The notes under the pieces: model-generated
What the model saw: only the letters and a program-made list of their open reading frames with translations
Told to the model about the DNA's origin: nothing
Databases searched by the model: none
Virus record (IMG/VR): IMGVR_UViG_2585427734_000005
Source of the DNA: a virus
Lineage: Duplodnaviria > Heunggongvirae > Uroviricota > Caudoviricetes
Strand: one strand, 5' to 3'
DNA: 23,325 bases
Translations under genes and position numbers: made by a program
Shown here: positions 1,985 through 23,325 of the stretch, one piece after another
Layout of the letters: every line of letters starts with the position of its first letter
Position numbering within the stretch: position 1 is the first letter of the stretch

Positions 1985-2794
1985 TTATTCCTCTGAATTA
2001 TCGATTACACTGTATTCCCCGGTTAATACAGAGGAATCTGCAGGATCGATTGTCAGTGGTTCCTTTTCATCCATTGATACTGCACGCTGGATCTCAATTG
2101 ATACGGGCAAATATTTGAACAGGCGACGAATAGCCGTTTTCTTTGCCATTTCTTCCCAGTGAGTTACCCACGGCCCGTTATTACCAGCTTTACTCAGGCT
2201 GCGCACCAGCTCAATCTGTTTGCGCGTCATAACTTCAAACTGAGTACCTCCGTCTTTCAGTCTTGCGACAGCATAGACGTGGGTAACCGGGGCATCTTCG
2301 TTTTCTCCCGGGCGGTGTATTAACTTTTCATCAAGGCCAAATTCGAAGCTAAACTCGTCACCTTCACGGACAACACGGGCTGACAGGCTGGCGATTTGAC
2401 CAGAACGGCGAGCCAGATCAATCATGCCGCGATAGCCAATGATTAGCTGAACGTTCTTTTTACCGCTCTTTTCGTTTTTATTACCAAAAGGCAGTAAATA
2501 TGCATGACCGAGGGCGCTACCTGGCTCAAGTCCGAGCTGTGAACACTGTACGATCGCACTGACAAAACTCATAGTGTCACAGTTTCCTAACGCCGGAACT
2601 TTACGAATTTCTGTGGTGGCGATACGGATCATACGTTCAGCCGTCATATGGCGTGGAAGAGCTGCTGCCAGTTGCTCTTTCATTGATGGCTGGTTAATAA
2701 AACTAATCACGTCGCTATTTTTAACTGCTGCTGGTGCACGGTTTCCCTGAGTTTTTTGCAGATCGGCTTTTGCGATTGGTGGTTGCTTAGTCAT
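1985..2794 (-). CDS. recT: Recombinase RecT (single-strand annealing protein), 269 aa
   Basis: Translation from the ATG at 2792-2794 (AAGGAA SD upstream) gives [55 protein letters not shown]..., matching RecT. It overlaps the recE stop by 8 nt, as in the known recET operon. Confidence 0.95.
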
Positions 2795-4172
2795 TTGCAT
2801 ATTCCTTAGCCCAGCGGGGCAGTGATAATGTCTTAATAGCTGGCCATTCATCGGTATTCAGGCAGTCAGACAGGGTTCGCAGATTGCGGTGATATTCCTG
2901 TTGACCTGCCAGTTTTGCTTCTTCGCCCATCATGAAAATTTCAACCGGATAACGTCCGCATTCAATAGTTGTGCTGGCAACCAGAAAAACGAAAGTTGGC
3001 TGCACTCCAAACTGTGCTTCATAACCGTCACTGTAGAATGCATCCTGAACGTGATAGCGGTAGTCGTAATAAGCGGTTTTGAATCGTTGAATATCCGCCG
3101 TAGTTTTCACGTCCATGATCCAGTGAAATTCAGGGATAATTTTGTCCGGACGGCACCGACACAAAATTCCTGTTTCAGGATCTTCCCAGTAAATTGATGA
3201 TTCAGCGTGTCCGGCGCTTTCAACAAGCCATTGCCCCAGCGGCAAAGCCATAACGCTTTGATACATGAGTTCAATTTTCCGGCCTTCTTCCGCAGTGATA
3301 ACCGTTTTTCCTGTGCTTGCGCATTCCATCAGAAACGCTTTCTCTTCTTCTTTTCCGGCGTTTGTACGGCGGTTAAATTCAGGTGCTACGATAAAGCGGT
3401 TACTGAATTCTTCCGGTTCAAGTACCCGGCAGTGGAAAGCAGTTCCTAAATCGAGCGTTTTTGTCTTTGTGGTGTCCACGGGGGCATTTTTACGCCACAA
3501 ATATAGTGCCGGAGTATCAGCAATGTCATCGAGCTGAGACTTACTGATACCGGGACCCGCGTGGTAATTCTCATTCGAAATTCCGTAATAAATACCTGGC
3601 TCTATGTCTTCTACGATTACGGGATCTGCGACTTCGCCAGTTTCATCACTGCAATCGCGATGCGGATCGCTGCCAGCATTCTCATTGTGCGGATGTTCAG
3701 CGCCTTCCATTTCCTCCGGATCATTTTCCTTAGCTTCAACCTGACTCTCTTCATCGAATGTTTCCTGGTATGTTGCGTCGCCCATCACCGCACCACAGTC
3801 AGGGCAGTTATCCCCGCCAGTCTGGCCGCAGGCATTGCAGGCTATTTCCGGTTCCTGTTGCACTACTGGCTCAGGTTGATTCATATCCGGGCTGGTTTTT
3901 TCCGTTTCTGGCTGGTTCTGGTACACACAATCGCGAGTCTGGATCCCCTTTACCCATTTCGGATCGTTCGGGTCGCTAATTCCGTCAACAAATTCATCAC
4001 GTGATGCAGCAAGCAATTTATCGGCATCGACAGGATTTTTTGATGGAATGTTTTTCCGGGCTTTATGGAGTTCTGCCCGCAGTTCCTGATATTTCGCATC
4101 AACAGAATTTACCTGTGACTGAGCATCCAGCGGCTGCGTGTCCTGATGATGTTCAGTTGCGTCCGGTTCCAT
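2787..4172 (-). CDS. recE: recE 3' portion: ORF for the C-terminal 461 aa of exonuclease VIII (contains the nuclease domain)
   Basis: Minus-strand ORF starting at ATG 4170-4172, preceded by GGGAGAGG at an 8-nt spacing. The protein ([15 protein letters not shown]...[10 protein letters not shown]) matches the RecE C-terminal region. The frame upstream of the ATG reads ...[23 protein letters not shown], which is also RecE-like. Confidence 0.7.
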
Positions 4173-4984
4173 TGTTTCAGCCTCTCCCTGTTCAACTGCC
4201 GTTGTTCCAGATGGTTGCGGTTTTTCTTCATCATCCTGTTTCCGCCGCCAGCATTAGCACCGGAAGCCGTGCGAGTGATGTGTGAAACACGATTACCCTT
4301 CATCCACTCTTTTGTCAGCAGTCCTCGATCGGTGTAGTCAGCGTTCAGGTATGCTTCGAAAAAAGCAGTTATCAGTCCCAGGTTTGAATTACCAGGATTA
4401 GGGAAAACTTTGTCAGTGTCACGAACCAGTTTGTGGAGTTCGCGAATTTCCAGCGGGTCGAGCAGGCTGGTTTTGTGGGAAACAGCCAGGGCAGTAACAG
4501 CCGGTAGTTCTTCAGCCCGAGCAATGTGTAATGCCTGGAGTCCGTCGCGTGAAACGTGCGTTACCGGTTTTTCGCTGCCGTGTTGAGCAAGCCAACGAAT
4601 GGGCAGTTCCTGGCCAGAAATTGGGAGTAGCATATTCTCCTCAATCTCAGTCATGTCTTCGCCGTTGACGTTGGTATTGCCTTGATAGTGAGCGTTGTCT
4701 GGTGCTGCTCCCGGTTTTAGTTCCCATGTCATGGAGTCTTTGCTGAGTTGATAGCGTTCACTCCAGGTAAAATCGATCTCACCTTCAGCGGGCAGGTCAT
4801 TAACGACAGGAAAATTCGTGGCAACAGCTTTAAAATAGCTGCTCAGTTTTTTACCTGACTTAACGATCAGGTAGTCCAGAGTGGCACAGGTCGATTCAAA
4901 ATCGTTGCTTGCCCACAGGACGACGTCAGGTTCACCGGATGATTTTTTCGCTTTCCGTAACAGGAAGAGTGGTTTTGTGCTCAT
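4109..4984 (-). pseudogene. recE: recE 5' fragment: RecE N-terminal ~249 aa, then a frameshifted 42-codon tail
   Basis: ORF from ATG 4982-4984 gives [30 protein letters not shown]...[10 protein letters not shown] (RecE N-terminus), then runs out of frame relative to the downstream RecE ORF. The whole recE span (2787-4984) is 2198 nt against 2601 nt for the 866-codon K-12 gene. Confidence 0.7.
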
Positions 4985-7054: not shown

Positions 7055-7225
7055 CTTATCTCTCCCCTTAACGCCGGGTGGCGGAACTAACTGCTGCACT
7101 GCAAAATTTGAATCCCGCCGTCATGTTCTTACGCCTCGGGCTGGCTACTTAACCCCTGACCACTGCCTGGTAACTCGAAGTATTGCCCTGCATTCTGTGG
7201 GGCGGGGGGGGTTGGTATGAAAAGA

Positions 7226-8590: not shown

Positions 8591-9661
8591 ATGGCTAACG
8601 CCTGGCTCAGATTATGGCATGACATGCCAAATGACCCTAAGTGGCGAACAATTGCCAGGGTGTCAGGACAGCCAATTGCAACAGTGATGGCAGTGTATAT
8701 CCACCTCCTGGTGAGCGCGTCACGAAATGTCACGCGAGGTCACATTGATGTCACGACAGAAGATTTGGCAAGTGCGCTCGACGTGACAGAAGAGGTAATT
8801 GATTCAATTTTGCAGACGATGCAGGGGCGGGGACTTGATGGTGATTTAATCACTGGATGGGAAAAACGCCAGGTGCTTAAAGAGGACAACGGCAATATTT
8901 CGCAAACCGCAAAATCTCCTGCAGAGCGCAAGAGGGCGCAGCGAGAGAGGGAAAGAAAGCGGGAACAAAATGGCGATTGTCACGGCGCGTCACGAAATGT
9001 CACGCACATGTCACGACGAGTCACGACAGATAAAGATACAGATAAAGATACAGATCAAGAAGATCAAAACACTATGGTCCATGGCGTAAAAAACGCCACG
9101 AACCAGGCAGGGGATGTTCAGACCGTCAATCTTGGTCAGCCAGCAGGCACGACACCGGAAGCCGATTCAGCGTATGCGCTGAAAGCCGATTCGGGCGCTG
9201 TGCAGCAGGTGATGACCGCAAGGGCGGAGCAATCACACCAACTGCAGCAGCCTGAAGCCGATTCCGCCATTCAGCGGGAAGCCGATCGGGTAGTCCCGGA
9301 AAACACCGGGCAGTCTGTGGGACGAGTGGATTATCCGGATGTGTTCGAACAGGTCTGGCGGGAGTACCCGTTGCGTGCTGGGGCAAACCCGAAGAAATCC
9401 GCTTTCAGTGCCTGGAAGGCCAGATTACGCGAGGGGGTGCCACCAGAGGCCATGCTGGATGGCGTGAGGCGTTACGCAAGATACTTGGCGGCTACCGGGA
9501 AAACGGGAACGGAATTTGTTCAGCGAGCGACGACGTTTTTTGGACCGGACCGGAATTTTGAGAACCCCTGGTTGCTCCCGGTAAGCGGCACGAACAACCA
9601 GCGTTGTGTGAATCATATTTCTGAACCGGATAACGAAATTCCGCCGGGCTTCAGGGGGTAA
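8591..9661 (+). CDS. Replisome organizer / replication initiator (lambda O-like, YdaU-like), 356 aa
   Basis: ATG at 8591 preceded by AAGAGGTGA. The N-terminus (MANAWLRLWHDMPNDPKWRTIARV) fits the phage replisome-organizer N-terminal pattern. The gene carries iteron arrays and an AT-rich tract that encode a low-complexity linker (SRNVT..., DKDTDKDTDQEDQ). Confidence 0.65.
   Translation: MANAWLRLWHDMPNDPKWRTIARVSGQPIATVMAVYIHLLVSASRNVTRGHIDVTTEDLASALDVTEEVIDSILQTMQGRGLDGDLITGWEKRQVLKEDNGNISQTAKSPAERKRAQRERERKREQNGDCHGASRNVTHMSRRVTTDKDTDKDTDQEDQNTMVHGVKNATNQAGDVQTVNLGQPAGTTPEADSAYALKADSGAVQQVMTARAEQSHQLQQPEADSAIQREADRVVPENTGQSVGRVDYPDVFEQVWREYPLRAGANPKKSAFSAWKARLREGVPPEAMLDGVRRYARYLAATGKTGTEFVQRATTFFGPDRNFENPWLLPVSGTNNQRCVNHISEPDNEIPPGFRG
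8719..8755. repeat. Iteron array 1: four GTCACR repeats at about 10-bp spacing
   Basis: GTCACG at 8719, 8729 and 8750 and GTCACA at 8739, inside the replisome-organizer ORF. Confidence 0.6.
8979..9072. repeat. Iteron array 2 (five GTCACG repeats at about 10-bp spacing) plus adjacent AT-rich tract: putative replication origin
   Basis: GTCACG at 8979, 8989, 8999, 9010 and 9020, followed by GATAAAGATACA x2 and an A/T-rich tract (9031-9072). This mirrors the iteron plus AT-rich layout of ori-lambda inside O. Confidence 0.55.
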
Positions 9662-10458: not shown

Positions 10459-12462
10459 ATGATTATGAGTGAAAATGATACAACCCCAAAGAAGTCTACA
10501 AGCCAGATTAACAAAGCGGTATTCTTTACATCTGCTTTGCTAATTTTCCTTCTTGTCGCCTTTGCCGCCGTATTCCCGGATGTCGCCGACAAAAATTTTA
10601 AACTACTTCAGCAACAAATCTTCACGAATGCCAGCTGGTTCTACATACTTGCTGTGGCCCTGATTTTACTGAGCGTCACGTTCCTTGGACTCTCACGTTA
10701 CGGTGATATAAAGCTGGGCCCAGACCATGCGCAGCCTGATTTCAGCTACCACTCCTGGTTCGCGATGCTTTTTTCGGCAGGGATGGGGATCGGCCTGATG
10801 TTCTTTGGCGTTGCCGAACCTGTGATGCATTATCTTTCGCCACCTGTCGGCACTCCAGAGACCGTTGCGGCAGCGAAGGAAGCCATGCGCCTGACGTTCT
10901 TCCACTGGGGTCTGCACGCATGGGCAATTTATGCCATCGTGGCGCTGATTCTGGCCTTTTTCAGTTACCGTCACGGTCTGCCTTTAACGCTGCGTTCTGC
11001 GCTCTATCCCATTATCGGCGATCGCATTTACGGGCCTATAGGCCACGCGGTTGATATCTTCGCCGTGATAGGCACTGTCTTTGGCGTTGCAACATCGCTG
11101 GGTTACGGTGTATTGCAGGTGAATGCCGGTTTGAACCATCTTTTCGGCGTGCCCATCAATGAAACGGTACAGGTCATTTTGATCGTGGTCATCACGGGGT
11201 TAGCGACGATTTCGGTGGTGTCCGGCCTGGACAAGGGAATACGCATCCTGTCTGAGCTTAATCTGGGCCTGGCGGTGTTGCTCCTGGCGCTGGTCTTGTG
11301 CCTGGGTCCCACTGTGCTTCTGCTGAAGTCATTTGTGGAAAATACGGGTGGTTATTTGTCGGAACTGGTGAGTAAAACGTTCAACCTTTACGCGTATGAA
11401 CCCAAGTCGAGCAACTGGCTGGGGGGCTGGACATTATTATACTGGGGATGGTGGCTTTCATGGTCGCCGTTTGTAGGTATGTTCATTGCACGCGTTTCCC
11501 GCGGCAGGACAATTCGTGAGTTCGTGACTGGCGTGTTGTTTGTTCCCGCCGGCTTTACGCTCATGTGGATGACGGTGTTTGGAAACAGCGCCATCTATCT
11601 CATCATGAACCAGGGCGCCACTGACCTCGCCAATACCGTTCAGCAGGATGTTGCGCTTGCCCTGTTTAATTTCCTGGAGCATTTCCCGTTCTCTTCCGTG
11701 CTGTCATTCATTGCAATGGCGATGGTCATCGTCTTCTTTGTAACGTCTGCTGATTCGGGGGCAATGGTTGTGGATACTCTGGCATCAGGTGGGGTGGCAA
11801 ACACGCCCGTCTGGCAGCGAATTTTCTGGGCATCGCTCATGGGCGTTGTTGCTATTGCCCTGCTGATCGCAGGGGGGCTGAGTGCGTTGCAAACCGTAAC
11901 GATAGCGAGTGCATTGCCCTTCTCAGTTATCTTATTAATATCCATATACGGACTGTTAAAAGCCCTGCGTCGGGATTTGACCAAGCGTGAAAGCCTTAGC
12001 ATGGCGACTATTGCTCCTACGGCTGCACGTAACCCAATTCCCTGGCAGAGAAGGTTACGCAATATCGCGTATTTGCCGAAGCGCTCTCTTGTGAAACGTT
12101 TTATGGACGACATTATCCACCCCGCCATGACGCTGGTTCAGGAGGAACTTAACAAGCAGGGAACGATAAGCCACATCAGTGACGCCGCCGAGGATCGTAT
12201 TCGCCTTGAAGTCGATTTGGGCAACGAGCTGAATTATATATATGAAGTGAGGCTTCGCGGGTATAACTCACCGACCTTCGCGCTCGCTGCGCTGGATAAT
12301 GATGAGCAGCAGAGTGAACAACATCGATATTATCGCGCTGAAGTCTATCTCAAAGAGGGCGGCCAAAATTATGATGTAATGGGCTGGAATCAGGAACAGC
12401 TGATTAATGACATACTGGACCAGTACGAAAAACACCTGCACTTCCTGCATCTGGTTCGTTAA
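10459..12462 (+). CDS. betU: BCCT-family osmolyte transporter (BetT/BetU-like), 667 aa
   Basis: Strong similarity throughout to E. coli BetT as recalled (for example WxxWWxxWSPFVGMFIARVSRGRTIREF, SADSG, ...DILDQYEKHLHFLHL). The 667-aa length and position in a Rac-like prophage suggest the BetU variant; the gene symbol is less certain than the family call. Confidence 0.85.
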   Translation: MIMSENDTTPKKSTSQINKAVFFTSALLIFLLVAFAAVFPDVADKNFKLLQQQIFTNASWFYILAVALILLSVTFLGLSRYGDIKLGPDHAQPDFSYHSWFAMLFSAGMGIGLMFFGVAEPVMHYLSPPVGTPETVAAAKEAMRLTFFHWGLHAWAIYAIVALILAFFSYRHGLPLTLRSALYPIIGDRIYGPIGHAVDIFAVIGTVFGVATSLGYGVLQVNAGLNHLFGVPINETVQVILIVVITGLATISVVSGLDKGIRILSELNLGLAVLLLALVLCLGPTVLLLKSFVENTGGYLSELVSKTFNLYAYEPKSSNWLGGWTLLYWGWWLSWSPFVGMFIARVSRGRTIREFVTGVLFVPAGFTLMWMTVFGNSAIYLIMNQGATDLANTVQQDVALALFNFLEHFPFSSVLSFIAMAMVIVFFVTSADSGAMVVDTLASGGVANTPVWQRIFWASLMGVVAIALLIAGGLSALQTVTIASALPFSVILLISIYGLLKALRRDLTKRESLSMATIAPTAARNPIPWQRRLRNIAYLPKRSLVKRFMDDIIHPAMTLVQEELNKQGTISHISDAAEDRIRLEVDLGNELNYIYEVRLRGYNSPTFALAALDNDEQQSEQHRYYRAEVYLKEGGQNYDVMGWNQEQLINDILDQYEKHLHFLHLVR

Positions 12463-12469
12463 CAGCAAC

Positions 12470-12498
12470 ATGCCGCCACAGAGGCGGCATTTATTTAT
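12470..12498 (+). terminator. Rho-independent terminator downstream of the BCCT transporter gene
   Basis: Perfect 8-bp stem ATGCCGCC/GGCGGCAT with loop ACAGA, followed by TTATTTAT, 8 nt after the stop codon. Confidence 0.6.
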
Positions 12499-12525
12499 CC
12501 CGGCTGCAATATGAGGGAATGCAGA

Positions 12526-13803
12526 ATGATTTCACGCTGGAAATGGATGCTGAAGCAGACATTTAAAAAACTATGGTTCAGGGCAACGTTATTCGCAATT
12601 GTCGCAATAATAACGGCCCTTTTATCAATTCTTTTTAAATCAATGATACCTGAGTCGGTTTCCGTGAAGGTTGGTGCGGAAGCAGTCGATAACATTCTGA
12701 ACATACTGGCATCGAGTATGCTGGCAGTGACCACATTTTCGCTGAGCATCATGGTCACAGCCTACGGTTCAGCCACTACTAATGTGACTCCCAGAGCTAC
12801 TCGTTTAGTTGTTGAAGACGTCACCACACAAAATGTACTGGCCACCTTCATCGGTTCTTTTCTCTTCAGTCTGGTAGGGATTATTGCTCTCAATATGGGA
12901 GCTTATGGAGAAAGGGGGAGAGTCATTTTATTCATTGTAACACTGGTTGTCATTGCCTTAATCCTCATCACATTGCTTCGCTGGATACAGCATTTGACCT
13001 CTCTGGGGAGGGTTGGTGAGACAACGGCAAAAGTAGAACAGGCGGCCATCGAAACATTTATTGCGAGAGCAAGAAATCCCTGTCTCGGCGGATATCCATG
13101 GCTTGAGAACAATGAACAGCCGAAAGGAACGGTTGCAGTTTATCCGAAAAAGATTGGCTATGTTGAATATGTTGATATGGTGAAACTCAGCAAGCTGCTG
13201 ACCAATGATCCCCGTCATGTATACCTCGTGGCGCAGCCGGGCAGTTTCATACATCCGTCCACGCCAGTTTTGTACCTGAGTCAGGGCCAGGAGTCATCAA
13301 TCAGCACCGATTTACTTGAGACGATTATTGTCTCGGATGTACGTTCATTTGCTCAGGACCCCCGATTTTGTCTTAGCGTCATGGCCGAAATAGCCTGCCG
13401 AGCCCTTTCCCCCGCAGTGAACGATCCTGGAACCGCCATTGATGTCATTGGCAGAGGTGTACGTATACTTTCCGCTTACGCGCAGAATAAATCTGATGAA
13501 ATAGAAGTGAAATATCCTTCTGTACATGTTGCACCACTTCAGAATAACGATCTACTTGAAGACTTTTTCTCACCTGTTGCGCGCGATGGTGCCAGTATGA
13601 GGGAAATTCAGATAAGGGTACTTAAAGGACTGTCGATGCTGAGTAAGGGTTGGCCTGGAATTTTTGCTGAAGCCGCACAAACCCTAGCATTTGAAACATT
13701 AGAGCATGCTACTCGTGCTGACCATATAGATTCTGACAGATATCTAATAAAATCAATTTATTATAATTTATTTAGTGGCGAAGATTCTAATAAAAAACCA
13801 TAG
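12526..13803 (+). CDS. Hypothetical membrane protein, 425 aa (N-terminal transmembrane segments plus large soluble domain; possibly DUF2254-like)
   Basis: ATG at 12526 preceded by GAGGGAA at a 6-nt spacing (an alternative ATG at 12511 has no SD). Hydrophobic N-terminal half and a long C-terminal domain. The family assignment is a tentative recollection. Confidence 0.6.
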   Translation: MISRWKWMLKQTFKKLWFRATLFAIVAIITALLSILFKSMIPESVSVKVGAEAVDNILNILASSMLAVTTFSLSIMVTAYGSATTNVTPRATRLVVEDVTTQNVLATFIGSFLFSLVGIIALNMGAYGERGRVILFIVTLVVIALILITLLRWIQHLTSLGRVGETTAKVEQAAIETFIARARNPCLGGYPWLENNEQPKGTVAVYPKKIGYVEYVDMVKLSKLLTNDPRHVYLVAQPGSFIHPSTPVLYLSQGQESSISTDLLETIIVSDVRSFAQDPRFCLSVMAEIACRALSPAVNDPGTAIDVIGRGVRILSAYAQNKSDEIEVKYPSVHVAPLQNNDLLEDFFSPVARDGASMREIQIRVLKGLSMLSKGWPGIFAEAAQTLAFETLEHATRADHIDSDRYLIKSIYYNLFSGEDSNKKP

Positions 13804-13863
13804 TTGCGGAGCAAGCGATACGGTTGTTGGCAAGTCAAGGGCAAAGCATTCGCGTGAGAGTGG

Positions 13864-13889
13864 GCGTCTGCTTTGTGCCAGAAGCGGAC
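13864..13889. repeat. Hairpin repeat copy B (GCGTCTGCT-N10-AGCGGAC)
   Basis: 7-bp stem with one G-U-compatible mismatch and loop TTGTGCCAGA (nearly identical to the copy A loop), between the convergent membrane-protein and LysR genes. Confidence 0.5.
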
Positions 13890-13933
13890 ATACGTAACTT
13901 ATGATACGCATCGCCAATCATCCGTTTCAAACA

Positions 13934-14815
13934 TCAACGCGGAAACGTTTTAAGAATGTAATCCCGAACATAGGCGGTTCGGCTGTTATTAGCCGTCCTT
14001 TTGTTCCAGACCAGATAAAGATGATTAGTCGGAGCGAGGTCTGCAGGTGTCACTGAAATCAGGCGACCACTTTTCAGGTCATTGTCACAGTGATAATCCG
14101 GCAGCACTGTCCACCCGTGGCCGTCACAGACCAAGTCGCGGATAATACGTAAATCCGGAATGGTGAATGTAGCCTGCATCTCAGGGGCTCTCTGAAACAT
14201 GGAGGCCCAGAGCGCTCTAATCAGTGGCAACTCTTCGTCATAAGCAATCAGCGGTAATGAGGCAAGCGTTTCAGCACCAGGTTCTGATCCGATGATCTCT
14301 GACATGGCGGGAGCATGAACAAGGAGCATGCGTTCAGTCAGTAGATGTGCATAGCCGTACAGACGGTCATCAGGCATAGATGTGGTAACAGCGAGATCGG
14401 CGCTCCCGTCATGCAAAAGGGAATAAATACGTTGCTTATTGCCGGTATGAAAGCGTAGGCGATACCCCTCCTTCATTAGTGGAGCCATTACTGTCCCAAG
14501 CCGGGAATGAATAAAATCTGGCGGTCCTGCCAGATTAATTGTTCCCCCGCGTACAGAGCCTGACCGGAAAGAGGACAGCTTTTCTTCCAGACCATCAATG
14601 AAGGGTGAAACTGAGCGGGCAAGCTCATCCGCAGCTTCGGTTGCCGTCACGCCTCTGGCCTGCCTGATAAACAGACGCTTACCAACCAGAGTCTCAAGAG
14701 ACTGGATATGCTGTGACGCCGCGGGCTGAGTGATGCCCAGTAGTTCTGCCGCCTTTGAAAAGGAGCCAGAGCGATAGGCCTCAAGAAACGTTCGCAGATG
14801 GCTCAGATGGCTCAT
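13934..14815 (-). CDS. LysR-family transcriptional regulator, 293 aa
   Basis: N-terminal HTH typical of LysR-type regulators (MSHLSHLRTFLEAYRSGSFSKAAELLGITQPAASQHIQSLE) with a C-terminal substrate-binding-like domain. The ATG overlaps the upstream gene's stop (ATGA). Confidence 0.9.
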   Translation of the reverse strand: MSHLSHLRTFLEAYRSGSFSKAAELLGITQPAASQHIQSLETLVGKRLFIRQARGVTATEAADELARSVSPFIDGLEEKLSSFRSGSVRGGTINLAGPPDFIHSRLGTVMAPLMKEGYRLRFHTGNKQRIYSLLHDGSADLAVTTSMPDDRLYGYAHLLTERMLLVHAPAMSEIIGSEPGAETLASLPLIAYDEELPLIRALWASMFQRAPEMQATFTIPDLRIIRDLVCDGHGWTVLPDYHCDNDLKSGRLISVTPADLAPTNHLYLVWNKRTANNSRTAYVRDYILKTFPR

Positions 14816-15504
14816 AGTGAAGCGCCTCGCTGATGAAGTTTATCGTTACAGGGAGCCTCATGCAGAGCAAGGGCCAGTTCACTCACGTAATCATCCCGTA
14901 TTCCCAACGCACCCAGAGTGGCCTGCAGTTTCCATACATAATCTGCATTCGTGCCAATGTCTCCACGGGCAGATGCGATGCTCAACGCTACGGTCGCTGT
15001 AAGATTGTCCTGTTCATAATGCGGATGCAGTCTGTCTGATACGAAAGCCAGCGCCTGAATTTCCTCACCGTTTCCTAGCGAAACGTCTGCCCAGACCGGA
15101 CGGTAAAGACCGGTTATCATCTCGCGCGTCCAGACAATTTCCAGCTCATTAATAAGAGTCGATTCCGGCAGTCTGAACGCAATACCTTCGGTAATTCCAC
15201 CTTCGTCGAGCGATAACATCCTGCCGGGGACATCAGGAGTCGCTCGTCCGGATATCAAACGAATGCAGAAACTGCGCTGCCATCCTTTCAGACGGGCCCG
15301 TTGCATTTCTTCAATCGCCAGCACGGGATTCCACATCAATGACCCGTAGGCAAATATCCAGACAGGAGCACCCGTCGGGCGCTCCTCCAGAGTAGAGTTC
15401 ATTGATGCGCGTATTTTTTCAGCGTCCCAGAGCATATTCGCCGGGAGCAGCGCTTCATGCACCCTGACAAATGTGCCATTAAGCATATTTTCACGGGTAA
15501 GCAT
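14812..15504 (-). CDS. ChaC-like gamma-glutamylcyclotransferase family protein, 230 aa
   Basis: Contains the ChaC/GGCT hallmark VWIFAYGSLMWNP and overall similarity to E. coli ChaC as recalled. GGGAGGT SD upstream of the ATG at 15502-15504. Confidence 0.85.
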   Translation of the reverse strand: MLTRENMLNGTFVRVHEALLPANMLWDAEKIRASMNSTLEERPTGAPVWIFAYGSLMWNPVLAIEEMQRARLKGWQRSFCIRLISGRATPDVPGRMLSLDEGGITEGIAFRLPESTLINELEIVWTREMITGLYRPVWADVSLGNGEEIQALAFVSDRLHPHYEQDNLTATVALSIASARGDIGTNADYVWKLQATLGALGIRDDYVSELALALHEAPCNDKLHQRGASL

Positions 15505-15515
15505 ATAACCTCCCT

Positions 15516-16716
15516 TTACTGGCCTACGATTTTAACCTGTTGAAATTTACGACTGTGGCTGCGACGGATTTGTGCAAGCAGCAACAGCAGGCCGAGCAGA
15601 GAAACAATCGCACCGCTGATACCGGTATACACGATACCGGCGTGGCTTATAGTAATGCTGCCCAGTACTGATCCCAGCGCTATACCTGAGTTGAAGCCCG
15701 CAATATTCAGGCCGGCAGCAACACCATGCGCATGAGGAGCATGTTGCTCAGCGACACCAATCAGACGGGCCTGCAGTGCCGGCACTGCGGCAAATGTCAC
15801 CATACCCAGCAGCGCAACCACAATGCCCATGCTCACCGGTGAGGATGACAGCAGCCACATACCAAGCACGACAACAACAATGCCGCTAATGATGAGTATA
15901 TTGGCACGATTAACCCCCATGCTGTCGGTAAGTTTCCCACCAAGAATATTACCTACCGCAGCTGTAATACCGTAAACCAGCATAAACAGACTCACCGTTG
16001 CTCCGGTAACCCCTGTCACCTGCGTCAGAATAGGTGCGATAAAGGTGTAAGCCGTAAACGAGCCTGCATACGCCAGCACCGTAACCAGCGCGCCGGCCAG
16101 CAACTTACGGTTAAACAGCATGCCGATATTCTGCATTGCTGAGTCACTATGTTCACCGGGCACGCTGCGTACGGGATCTTTCATACCGAACAACAGTCCA
16201 AGGAATCCGAACGCGCCAAAAGCGGCAATAGCGCCGAGAACTGGACGCCATGAGACCCCCCCCCCCCAACCATGTACTCAGCGGTACGCCGATTGCCATC
16301 GCCAGAGTAAAGCCACCAAATACCACAGCCACCGCTCTGCCTGCTTTACCCGGTCCAGCAAGACGAGCTGCGGTACTGGATGCCGCAGCCAGAAACAGGC
16401 CGTGTCCCAGACCAGCAATGAACCGCGCTAACAGGAGCTGAGGTAATGTGGCTGCAAACGCGGCCGCCAGACTACCGGCAGTAAACACAACGGCAGTTGT
16501 AAGCATTACATTTTTCCGGCTCCAGCTTGCTGTCAGCGCAGACAGTACGGGTGCCGCGAACGTTGCCCCCAGTGCATAGGTTGTAACCGCTGCCCCGGTC
16601 TGCTCCACACCCACACACAACCCCTGAGCCATAACGTCTGTCAGCCCAATGGGGACAAATTCCGCGAGTCCGAGCGCAAAGGCACTGATAGTAAACACAT
16701 AAATAACAAATGGCAT
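15516..16716 (-). pseudogene. MFS transporter (DHA1/YdhP-AraJ-like), split into two ORFs by a frameshift at a C12/G12 homopolymer
   Basis: N-terminal ORF 16153-16716 (AGGAG SD, 12 nt after a TM-rich start MPFVIYVFTISAFALGLAEF...) and C-terminal ORF 15516-16193 are both MFS-like with multiple TM helices. The frames switch at the 12-C run at 16256-16267. Confidence 0.8.
16256..16267. repeat. Homopolymeric tract C12 (G12 on the coding strand) at the MFS frameshift site
   Basis: Twelve consecutive C residues counted directly in the sequence. Confidence 0.9.
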
Positions 16717-16932
16717 GACTGGCTCCTGATTTAAGTAAGGAGTGCAGTCTGATTTAGAAAAACAGATAAATAAAATAATGTAAACTTCAGGCGGGATAAA
16801 ATTATTTATATCTAAGGCAAAGATTCAATATTCCCACAGCACACAGAAGTTTTCTGTCTTCAGGGAGAGGAGCTTCGAAAGTTCAGACGAAAAATTCCTG
16901 CGGCCCCTTTAAGAGTCAGTTGGCCGGGTTTG

Positions 16933-17309: not shown

Positions 17310-17388
17310 AGATAGAGAAAAGCCCCAGTTAACATTACGCGTCCTGCAAGACGCTTAACATTAATCTGAGGCTCAATCTATGAACGGC
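17310..17388 (-). ncRNA. Putative Sok-like antisense RNA of the hok locus
   Basis: Minus-strand promoter: -35 TTGCCT (plus 17418-17423), 17-bp spacer, -10 TAACCT (plus 17395-17400), same layout as the R1 Sok promoter as recalled. The transcript would be antisense to the hok leader and end at a GCGTC/GACGC hairpin followed by a U-rich run. Boundaries are approximate. Confidence 0.35.
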
Positions 17389-17436
17389 AAATCTAGGTTA
17401 GCCTCTTACGTGCCGAAAGGCAAGGAGAAGCAGGCT

Positions 17437-17592
17437 ATGAAGCAGCAAAAGGCGATGTTAATCGCCCTGATCGTCATCTGTTTAACCGTTATAGTGACGG
17501 TACTGGTAACGAGGAAAGACCTCTGCGAGGTACGAATCCGAACCGACCAGACGGAGGTCGCTGTCTTCACAGCTTACGAACTTGGGGAGTAA
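17437..17592 (+). CDS. hokD: Hok-family type I toxin (HokD/RelF-like), 51 aa
   Basis: MKQQKAMLIALIVICLTVIVTVLVTRKDLCEVRIRTDQTEVAVFTAYELGE is near-identical to HokD/RelF as recalled. AAGGAG SD at 17422-17427, an upstream in-frame mok-like ORF from 17380, and a 3' hairpin GCGGGGA-GAAA-TCCCCGC (17601-17618). Confidence 0.8.
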   Translation: MKQQKAMLIALIVICLTVIVTVLVTRKDLCEVRIRTDQTEVAVFTAYELGE

Positions 17593-18055: not shown

Positions 18056-18655
18056 ATGGCGCATATACAACTGGTCAAACAAACTTCTTCTGGTTTACTT
18101 CTCCCGGCGACGCCGGAGAGTTGCGATTTTCTGCATCAAATCAAAATAGGTGAGTGGATACACGTAGACTTTAAGCGTGTGCGTAACTACGCATTCCACA
18201 AGCGTTTTTTCAAACTCCTGCAACTGGGATTCGATTACTGGACTCCGGTCGGTGGGGCGATCACGCCTCGCGAACGAGAACTGCTGTCTGGTTTCGTTGA
18301 TTACCTGTGCGAATCAGTTGGTCGGGAACACACGCCAGCCCTGAGTGATGCCGCAGAGCAATACCTTAACACCGTTGCGACTCGTAGAACCCGGGATACG
18401 GCGTTGCTAAAGTCGTTTGAGGCTTTCCGCGAGTGGGTAACCATTCAGGCCGGATTTTACACCGAGCATATTTATCCGGACGGTAGCCGTGGGCGTCGGG
18501 CAAAATCCATCGCTTTTGCGAATATGGACGAAGTCGAGTTTCAGCAGGTTTATAAATCTGTACTGAATGTGCTGTGGAACTGGATTCTGTTCCGTAAATT
18601 CTCCTCTCAGGAGGAAGTTGAAAATGTGGCCGCACAACTACTGGAGTTTGCGTAA
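18056..18655 (+). CDS. Phage protein (DUF1367-like; position equivalent to Qin ydfU N-terminal part), 199 aa
   Basis: ORF with ATG at 18056, translationally coupled to the next gene (TAATG at 18653-18657). The family call comes from recalled gene order in lambdoid prophages (DUF1367, YbcO, Q) and is not confirmed by sequence. Confidence 0.5.
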   Translation: MAHIQLVKQTSSGLLLPATPESCDFLHQIKIGEWIHVDFKRVRNYAFHKRFFKLLQLGFDYWTPVGGAITPRERELLSGFVDYLCESVGREHTPALSDAAEQYLNTVATRRTRDTALLKSFEAFREWVTIQAGFYTEHIYPDGSRGRRAKSIAFANMDEVEFQQVYKSVLNVLWNWILFRKFSSQEEVENVAAQLLEFA

Positions 18656-19122
18656 TGGTGAATTTACGTAAAGCGGCTAAAGGCCAGATGTGCCAGATCA
18701 GAATCCCTGGCTACTGCAATCACAATCCCGAAACCTCTGTGCTGGCGCATTACAGGCTGGCGGGGACGTGCGGAACAGCGACAAAACCACACGATATGCA
18801 GGCGGCGATAGCCTGTAGCTCATGCCACGATCTAATCGACGGGCGGGTAAAAACCAGCGATTACACCAAAGAAGAATTGCGCCTGATGCATGCTGAAGGG
18901 GTTTTCGCACACAAGAAATCTGGAGAAAGAAAGGTCATTTATGATTTACCCAACGAATACAGGAAAAAGCGGAGAACACCTTCGCCTCACCACGCTGGAA
19001 AGTGTCTGGATTCAGGGAAAACTACGTATGTGGGGGCGCTGGTCGTATATTGGCGGTGGCAGGTCAGGGAATATGTTCAATCAGTTGTTGGCATCCAAAA
19101 AACTGACGAAAACAGCCATTAA
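18655..19122 (+). CDS. YbcO-like protein (DUF1364, Cys-rich putative nuclease), 155 aa ORF, about 60 aa longer than typical YbcO
   Basis: N-terminal 95 aa (MVNLRKAAKGQMCQIRIPGYCNHNPETSVLAHYRLAGTCGTATKPHDMQAAIACSSCHDLIDGR...) resembles DLP12 YbcO as recalled. The ORF then continues and overlaps the next gene by about 180 nt. Confidence 0.55.
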   Translation: MVNLRKAAKGQMCQIRIPGYCNHNPETSVLAHYRLAGTCGTATKPHDMQAAIACSSCHDLIDGRVKTSDYTKEELRLMHAEGVFAHKKSGERKVIYDLPNEYRKKRRTPSPHHAGKCLDSGKTTYVGALVVYWRWQVREYVQSVVGIQKTDENSH

Positions 19123-22927: not shown

Positions 22928-23037
22928 AATCTTAACTACAATATGATTCATTTTGATGATTGTTTCATAAGGAACAGTGAAGTAAGATCTAAGAGGAGTT
23001 AAATTTTATACAGTATAATCATAATATTGCAGCAAGT

Positions 23038-23325
23038 AGACTGGCCCCATGAATCTCCAGACAACCAATATCACTTAAATAAGTGATAGTCTTAATACTA
23101 GTTTTTAGACTAGTCATTGGAGAGCAGATGATTGATGTCTTAGGACCGGAGAAACGCAGACGGCGTACTACACAGGAAAAGATCGCTATTGTTCAGCAGA
23201 GTTTTGAACCGGGAATGACGGTCTCCCTTGTTGCCCGGCAACACGGTGTGGCAGCCAGCCAGTTATTTCTCTGGCGCAAGCAATACCAGGAGGGAAGTCT
23301 TACTGCTGTGGCCGCAGGAGAGCAG
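23038..23325 (+). mobile_element. IS2 insertion sequence, left end (continues beyond the window)
   Basis: Sequence from TAGACTGGCCCC... matches the IS2 left terminal inverted repeat as recalled, followed about 90 bp later by the insC start. Confidence 0.85.
23128..23325 (+). CDS. insC: IS2 transposase OrfA (InsC), N-terminal 66 codons (partial at window edge)
   Basis: [66 protein letters not shown] matches IS2 InsC. GGAGAGC SD upstream. Truncated by the window end. Confidence 0.9.

Follow-up and report, generated by a model that had tools for sequence, protein, structure and literature searches.

The window, that is, the whole stretch of 23,325 nt that was analysed, was 100% identical to NCBI JOSQ01000092.1, and the C12 run described below is therefore present in the deposited assembly. 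JOSQ is E. coli 8_415_05_S1_C2 (ST226, phylogroup A; host, a Tanzanian infant; PMC6222053), assembled as a draft with MaSuRCA 2.3.2 from 100-bp HiSeq 2000 reads (PMC6222053). The window holds a Rac-like prophage at the site ttcA, with intR, xisR, rcbA, ralR, recT, recE, racC, kilR and sieB, followed by hokD and lysis genes. A cargo block (10465-16716) lies between the replication and late regions and comprises a BetT-like BCCT transporter, a DUF2254 gene and, on the minus strand, genes for a LysR-family regulator, a ChaC-like gamma-glutamylcyclotransferase and a major facilitator superfamily (MFS) protein. The features at the locus were:

15516 to 16716, minus strand: MFS gene (DHA1-like, 12-TM type) with a +1 frameshift; repaired product of 399 aa, identical to P0136
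16256 to 16267, minus strand: C12 on the plus strand, G12 on the coding strand, within the MFS gene at about codons 151-154
16153 to 16716, minus strand: N-terminal fragment of 187 aa, starting at ATG 16716 and ending in WLGGGGLMASSSRRYCRFWRVRIPWTVVRYERSRTQRAR before the stop
15516 to 16229, minus strand: C-terminal MFS fragment, which keeps the original frame; 237 aa as called in the source assembly
14812 to 15504, minus strand: gamma-glutamylcyclotransferase/ChaC-like gene (PF04752), 11 nt past the MFS stop
13934 to 14815, minus strand: LysR-family regulator, with a 4-nt overlap with the ChaC-like gene
16801 to 16828, minus strand: candidate sigma-70-like promoter (TTGAAT-16-AATAAT), weak and a consensus match only, about 85 nt upstream of the MFS start

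The cargo block recurs beside uspF/ompN without the right prophage arm (locus L012), and several strains have IS insertions in it (L019, L020, L085, L087). A literature search on this Rac cargo island or its poly-G tract found nothing relevant. The type I toxin gene at 17380-17592 is of the hokD type and has an upstream, mok-like frame overlapping it; it is on the strand opposite to the MFS gene, some 700 nt away from the MFS start. The gene recE (exodeoxyribonuclease VIII; 2787-4984, minus strand) falls into two ORFs, one of 461 and one of 291 aa, and is a further decayed gene of this prophage lineage. MB19 and 30EVA1 have it intact (2601 nt), whereas ET881 and SW071610 have a version about 400 nt shorter with the annotation 'frameshifted'. 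The DUF1364/YbcO gene (18652-18941) has a frameshift near 18901 at a short run (GGGG-TTTT, compared with GGGGTTTTT in CP181453.1) and is annotated as frameshifted in MB19, ET881 and SW071610 too, being a second run-associated pseudogene common to the clade. Collinearity with the closest Rac-like prophages stops at 23036. The last 289 nt (23037-23325) correspond to a portion of a transposase gene (HTH_23/HTH_28/rve_3 type) of locus L019, and an IS element was apparently inserted after the lysis genes.

The MFS protein is, by its sequence, a member of the major facilitator superfamily of the DHA1-like 12-TM type, and Pfam PF07690 (MFS_1) and PF00083 (Sugar_tr) are on record for both the MFS fragments and intact homologues. 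Its best NCBIfam match was Cmx/CmrA (206 bits, 8.5e-61; cut-off 400), and matches to AraJ and NepI were likewise below their cut-offs. Assignment of a substrate through NCBIfam was dropped, every match being below its equivalog cut-off.

The homopolymer reported by an earlier reading of the sequence only was confirmed at its exact coordinates (16256-16267, CCCCCCCCCCCC; G12 on the coding strand) and was the sole mononucleotide run of at least 9 nt in the window. Mononucleotide runs in E. coli K-12 number 216 at 8 nt, 19 at 9 nt and one at 10 nt, with none longer (bioRxiv 10.1101/346874), and by this measure a C12 run is exceptional and no chance feature. The frame opened by ATG 16716 encoded the first 150 transporter residues, read ...STWLGGGG over the run, and then continued out of frame to the stop at 16153; the remainder of the transporter, from VSWRPVLG... 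as far as its stop (15516), lay in a different frame. The claim that the run frameshifts the first gene of the MFS/ChaC-like/LysR cluster thus held, the two halves being in different frames. The same reading had proposed to look for the tract length that restores the frame, and this was 11 nt, which gave back the 399-aa MFS protein; 14 nt gave a 400-aa protein, and tracts of 9, 10, 12 or 13 nt led to truncation at 177-187 aa.

Tract alleles were counted in 305 complete-genome E. coli records with the locus, by exact matches to synthetic 80-82-nt queries (plus strand):

CCA+C8: 262 of 305 records, in frame
CCA+C7: 13 of 305 records, out of frame
CCA+C9: 10 of 305 records, out of frame
Uninterrupted C11: 7 of 305 records, in frame
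CCA+C10: 1 of 305 records, out of frame
CCA+C6: at least 1 of 305 records, out of frame
Uninterrupted C12: 0 of 305 records, out of frame

On the coding strand the common allele is G8-T-GG (TTG GGG GGG GTG GTC), which encodes LGGVV in the conserved context LGGVVSWR. A pure homopolymer, as assumed by the sequence-only reading, is therefore not the native tract of the gene, the wild type being interrupted in 262 of the 305 complete-genome loci. A simple slip from C11 to C12 was ruled out, since the wild type is CCA+C8 and the nearest relatives have CCA+C9.

The residues LGG-V-(V/I/M)-SWR were kept in orthologues at 68-96% identity. The codons used for them in Enterobacter, Pantoea, Klebsiella, Silvania, Pseudomonas and Cupriavidus are CTG GGT GGC GTx. 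No homopolymer was found in the orthologues of 13 other taxa (including one metagenome bin; 70-96% identity), which encode LGG(V/T)(V/M/I)SWR with a longest G run of 3-6; G8 occurred only in the E. coli/Shigella allele. Because the orthologues encode the same residues without a run, the homopolymer is a chance result of the codons used by the E. coli/Shigella allele and is not conserved. Orthologues without any homopolymer here had been named beforehand as an observation against the initial proposal, and outside E. coli/Shigella (CTG GGT GGC GTx) this was the observation made.

The genomes closest to the window over 23 kb (99.9% identity) were MB19, SW071610, ET881 and 20AR0354. Their tracts were CCA+C9 in MB19, CCA+C10 in SW071610 and CCA+C6 in ET881, all three out of frame, and 20AR0354 matched as a 12-nt, split-gene allele. 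MB19 aligned with the window over 23 kb with no gaps. C12 and CCA+C9 are synonymous and encode the same 187-aa product, which was found exactly on 842 public contigs; among the matches listed from outside this sequencing project, 9 of 10 had CCA+C9 and 1 of 10 had C12. The 12-nt allele occurred in many unrelated projects, including the complete chromosomes CP026202, AP027764, AP025209 and CP195949, among others. A 12-nt length common to independent genomes indicates an inherited +1 allele (G8 to G9) and not a length error, and the suggestion of a homopolymer-length error in the assembly was not borne out.

It is highly improbable that the isolate has an in-frame 11-nt tract and that the extra base came from sequencing or assembly. 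JOSQ is a draft from 100-bp reads with other consensus-level anomalies beside runs, as such an error would lead one to expect, but these anomalies are substitutions and not indels. The sister colony JORZ (8_415_05_S1_C1, from the same stool) also has 12 nt, its tract being identical to that of the window. Independent genomes are out of frame as well, with 12 and 13 nt on an identical haplotype, and ET881, one SNP from the window haplotype, has 9 nt and is out of frame. The spread of the truncated product over its 842 contigs, from many projects and platforms, also argues against a length error. Assembly length error was rejected as the main explanation on the strength of the sister colony and the same-haplotype independent genomes, which are out of frame.

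Predicted products of other tract lengths were found on public contigs for -2 (n = 53), -1 (n = 164) and +2 (n = 42), and the in-frame +3 product, with an extra Gly, on 4 public contigs. When 50 loci were sorted into haplotypes over 4.2 kb, the window's own haplotype carried runs of 6, 8 (10 loci), 9, 10 and 11 nt; at least five haplotypes included the +1 allele and at least four the -1 allele. Multiple lengths on an identical haplotype indicate that slippage has been recurrent and in both directions, and that the tract changes faster than any flanking site. The proposal of a slipped-strand site was thus upheld, with tract lengths from -2 to +3 in public assemblies and several of them on one haplotype. 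The in-frame G11 allele (P0031; L079-L083; WLGGGVVSWRP) shares its haplotype with the G9 and G10 frameshift alleles, and the frame was apparently regained once, by stepwise slippage (8, 9, 10, 11). The copy in Shigella flexneri SFBU0723 (CP182557.1, L030; 99% identity) has G7-T-GG, a -1 frameshift in the same run.

The purity of the run depends on one base, and a second, shorter run in the window had a similar origin:

16258, no strand assigned: base that makes the run uninterrupted; C in the window, A in MB19, ET881 and SW071610
7204 to 7211, plus strand: G8 run, with T>G at 7208

CCA+C9 becomes C12 through the change 16258 A>C. The relatives have T at this position on the coding strand, the middle base of a Val codon (GTG), and this Val is conserved in orthologues. 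The G8 run at 7204-7211, also pointed out in the sequence-only reading, is present in the window but was created by 7208 T>G, and the sister colony and the three closest complete genomes have GGGGTGGG there. Relative to the three closest complete genomes (MB19, ET881 and SW071610), the window had 11 private substitutions (1971 A>C, 6284 A>C, 7208 T>G, 7976 C>G, 8832 T>G, 12120 A>C, 16258 A>C, 17674 T>G, 17698 A>T, 20553 T>C and 22847 A>C). In all 11, the new base was identical to a neighbouring base. Eight of the 11 were A:T>C:G changes, and 6 of these 8 were at A-CCC sites, which make up 106 of the 12,435 A:T sites (0.85%; binomial P ~1e-11). The 3-mer preceding the change on the G strand was GGG in six of the A:T>C:G changes, CGG in one and GAG in one. 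All five private changes in intact annotated genes altered the protein (SieB T6P, YdaS-like R50G, hypothetical protein V81G, BCCT Q552H and Rz T130P), one of them being also silent in the overlapping rzoD frame. BCCT Q552H was sought in other public assemblies and found in none.

JORZ differed from the window at 8 positions in 21 kb, far more than would be expected for co-resident colonies of one clone, and 6 of the 8 were of the run-adjacent A:T>C:G type. JORZ has 8832, 16258 and 17674 in common with the window, is without six others, and has two changes of its own of the same type. As a side observation, the private changes suggest consensus errors, or an odd mutator, across the whole of the JOSQ and JORZ assemblies. 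JORQ (6_537_08_S3_C3; ST192, phylogroup B1), an unrelated strain from the same project, has both C12 and G at 8832, and its nearest relative outside the project, AP027764, has CCA+C9. All 3 assemblies of the project, from two unrelated STs, had C12, compared with 1 of the 16 +1 alleles outside it. V81G (8832 T>G) was found on four public contigs, three of which belong to this project.

The T at the interruption was probably read as G, as a HiSeq 'substitute G after GGG' error in the MaSuRCA consensus. HiSeq substitution errors follow GGG, CGG and AGG motifs, ddGTP being preferentially incorporated (PMC4787001); the GGG/CGG context of the changes fits this error profile, and the changes track the project and not phylogeny. 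Against an artefact, Illumina assemblies rarely have a consensus error rate as high as the 1 per 2 kb or so implied here, and JORQ had no other run-adjacent A:T>C:G change over the approximately 8.7 kb compared with AP027764, a stretch that does not include its T>G at 8832. C12 also occurs on a third haplotype in the independent complete genome CP181453.1, next to a CCA+C9 neighbour, and uninterrupted C10, C11 and C13 alleles are known in other projects. These points would suit a genuine transient-misalignment substitution at an A-then-C9 hotspot, which is possible although unlikely; in E. coli, A-C3+ sites are a real hotspot of A:T>C:G change by transient misalignment (PMC13250602; bioRxiv 10.1101/346874). 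The frame is broken under either reading of 16258. The purity of the 12-nt run, as described in the sequence-only reading, hangs on 16258 A>C, which is probably an artefact and is one of a set of T>G/A>C changes in GGG context found across the assembly.

There is a smaller chance that 16258 A>C and the other private A:T>C:G changes are real and come from a hypermutator lineage, whether mutT-like, oxidised-dGTP/Pol IV-like or with more transient misalignment. The share of A:T>C:G (8 of 11 private changes) and the three changes common to two colonies that also have their own are as in a diversifying mutator clone, the A-C3+ hotspot is real in E. coli (PMC13250602), and Pol IV using oxidised dGTP produces A>C changes in P. 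aeruginosa where a C follows on the 3' side (PMC12318082). However, E. coli mutT prefers a 3' A (5'-AA-3', 44% of events), whereas in the A:T>C:G changes of the window a 3' A was found in 0 of 8 and a 3' C in 8 of 8 (P ~0.01). The branches are unequal, with 8 private changes in the window (23 kb) and 2 in the sister (21 kb); about 6% of A-CCC sites would be mutated, yet transitions were only 1 of 11; and the same rare changes recurred in an unrelated strain of the same sequencing project. A mutT mutator was disfavoured by this sequence context and by the recurrence that tracks the project.

A genuine contingency locus, in which reversible slippage would switch the MFS/ChaC-like/LysR cluster ON and OFF within populations, is very unlikely. 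All length states from -2 to +3 exist, several of them on one haplotype; the shared haplotype of in-frame G11 (extra Gly) with G9 and G10 fits stepwise frame restoration; at least 8% of the complete-genome loci are OFF; and the run opens an operon-like cluster. In common with contingency loci, the length of an intragenic tract sets the frame, and length polymorphism arises independently in close backgrounds. The repeat was not maintained across orthologues, in other genera and in all 13 other taxa (G run 3-6), which argues against such a locus, as does the retention of G8 in 86% of loci. What would be switched is an inner-membrane transporter whose prophage is decaying, with the pseudogenes recE and DUF1364 nearby, and the two same-stool colonies have an identical tract. 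Moreover, G8-G9 runs are ordinary indel hotspots in mismatch-repair-proficient E. coli (bioRxiv 10.1101/346874; PMC13250602). Strains 30EVA1 and 30EVA2, compared for within-patient switching, had differing prophage structures and are different strains. The phase-variable switch put forward in the sequence-only reading was thus not supported, with the same tract in two colonies from one stool and orthologues without the run. The run appears instead to be a mutational hotspot that gives ON and OFF alleles on evolutionary time-scales and not an evolved fast phase-variation switch.

To our knowledge, homopolymer contingency loci are generally thought to be absent from E. coli. The chance is slight that the G-run is a true if slow switch of a three-gene cargo cluster (G8 ON, G9 and G10 OFF, G11 with an extra Gly ON). 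If it were, run-fusing T>G changes (to G11 or G12) would speed switching further.

Compared with known systems, the locus is like an ordinary (Streisinger) slippage hotspot in having a G/C run of at least 8 nt in an ORF, +1, -1, +2 and -2 alleles on identical haplotypes and a truncated product. Nothing essential differs, although the run is unusually long for E. coli G/C and lies in horizontally acquired prophage cargo. Mutation-accumulation lines of E. coli show indel and substitution rates that increase with run length (bioRxiv 10.1101/346874). As in the poly-G/C contingency loci of Neisseria, Haemophilus, Campylobacter and Helicobacter, intragenic poly-G length toggles the frame, here with ON lengths of 8 and 11 and OFF lengths of 6, 7, 9 and 10; unlike those loci, the MFS run is absent in orthologues, is ON in 86%, has a target that is not a surface or restriction-modification gene, and sits in a host with mismatch repair.

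The fusion of the run resembles Illumina GGG-motif errors and transient-misalignment substitutions alike, the two having one sequence signature in common. With Illumina GGG/CGG-motif errors (Schirmer et al. 2016, PMC4787001) it shares the HiSeq platform, T read as G after GGG or CGG, discordance between replicate colonies and recurrence at the same sites in an unrelated strain of the same project; the difference is that errors here would reach the consensus, at about 1 per 2 kb, far above the usual. As in transient misalignment (dislocation) at A-C3+ sites (PMC13250602), a base beside a C run takes the base of the run, A-C9 at 16258 being an extreme case, but by a rough estimate measured rates are too low for at least 6 changes between same-stool colonies.

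Taken together, the locus is likely to be a slippage pseudogene in which the perfect homopolymer is secondary and probably artefactual. The ancestral E. coli allele was G8 followed by T-GG (encoding LGGVV), replication slippage altered G8 repeatedly, and the lineage of the window inherited the +1 allele (G9-T-GG, 12 nt). This allele truncates the transporter at 187 of its 399 residues. The stop at 16153 lies 650 nt upstream of the co-oriented ChaC-like and LysR genes, and truncation probably reduces the expression of these two downstream genes via polarity.

The 12-nt homopolymer and the G8 run at 7204-7211 came down to single T>G/A>C changes beside G/C runs that tracked one project, and such features in 2014-era HiSeq/MaSuRCA drafts should be compared with relatives before a biological reading is made. 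In the window, a prophage cargo gene has probably become a pseudogene through ordinary slippage, and a base call that is probably an artefact makes the allele look more striking than it is. The G8 run of the MFS gene opens no new question and may be of use as a population-level slippage marker. Underneath the fused tract, this run is a clean natural mononucleotide indel hotspot: in an accessory transporter cluster carried by Rac-like prophages, ON and OFF alleles recur.
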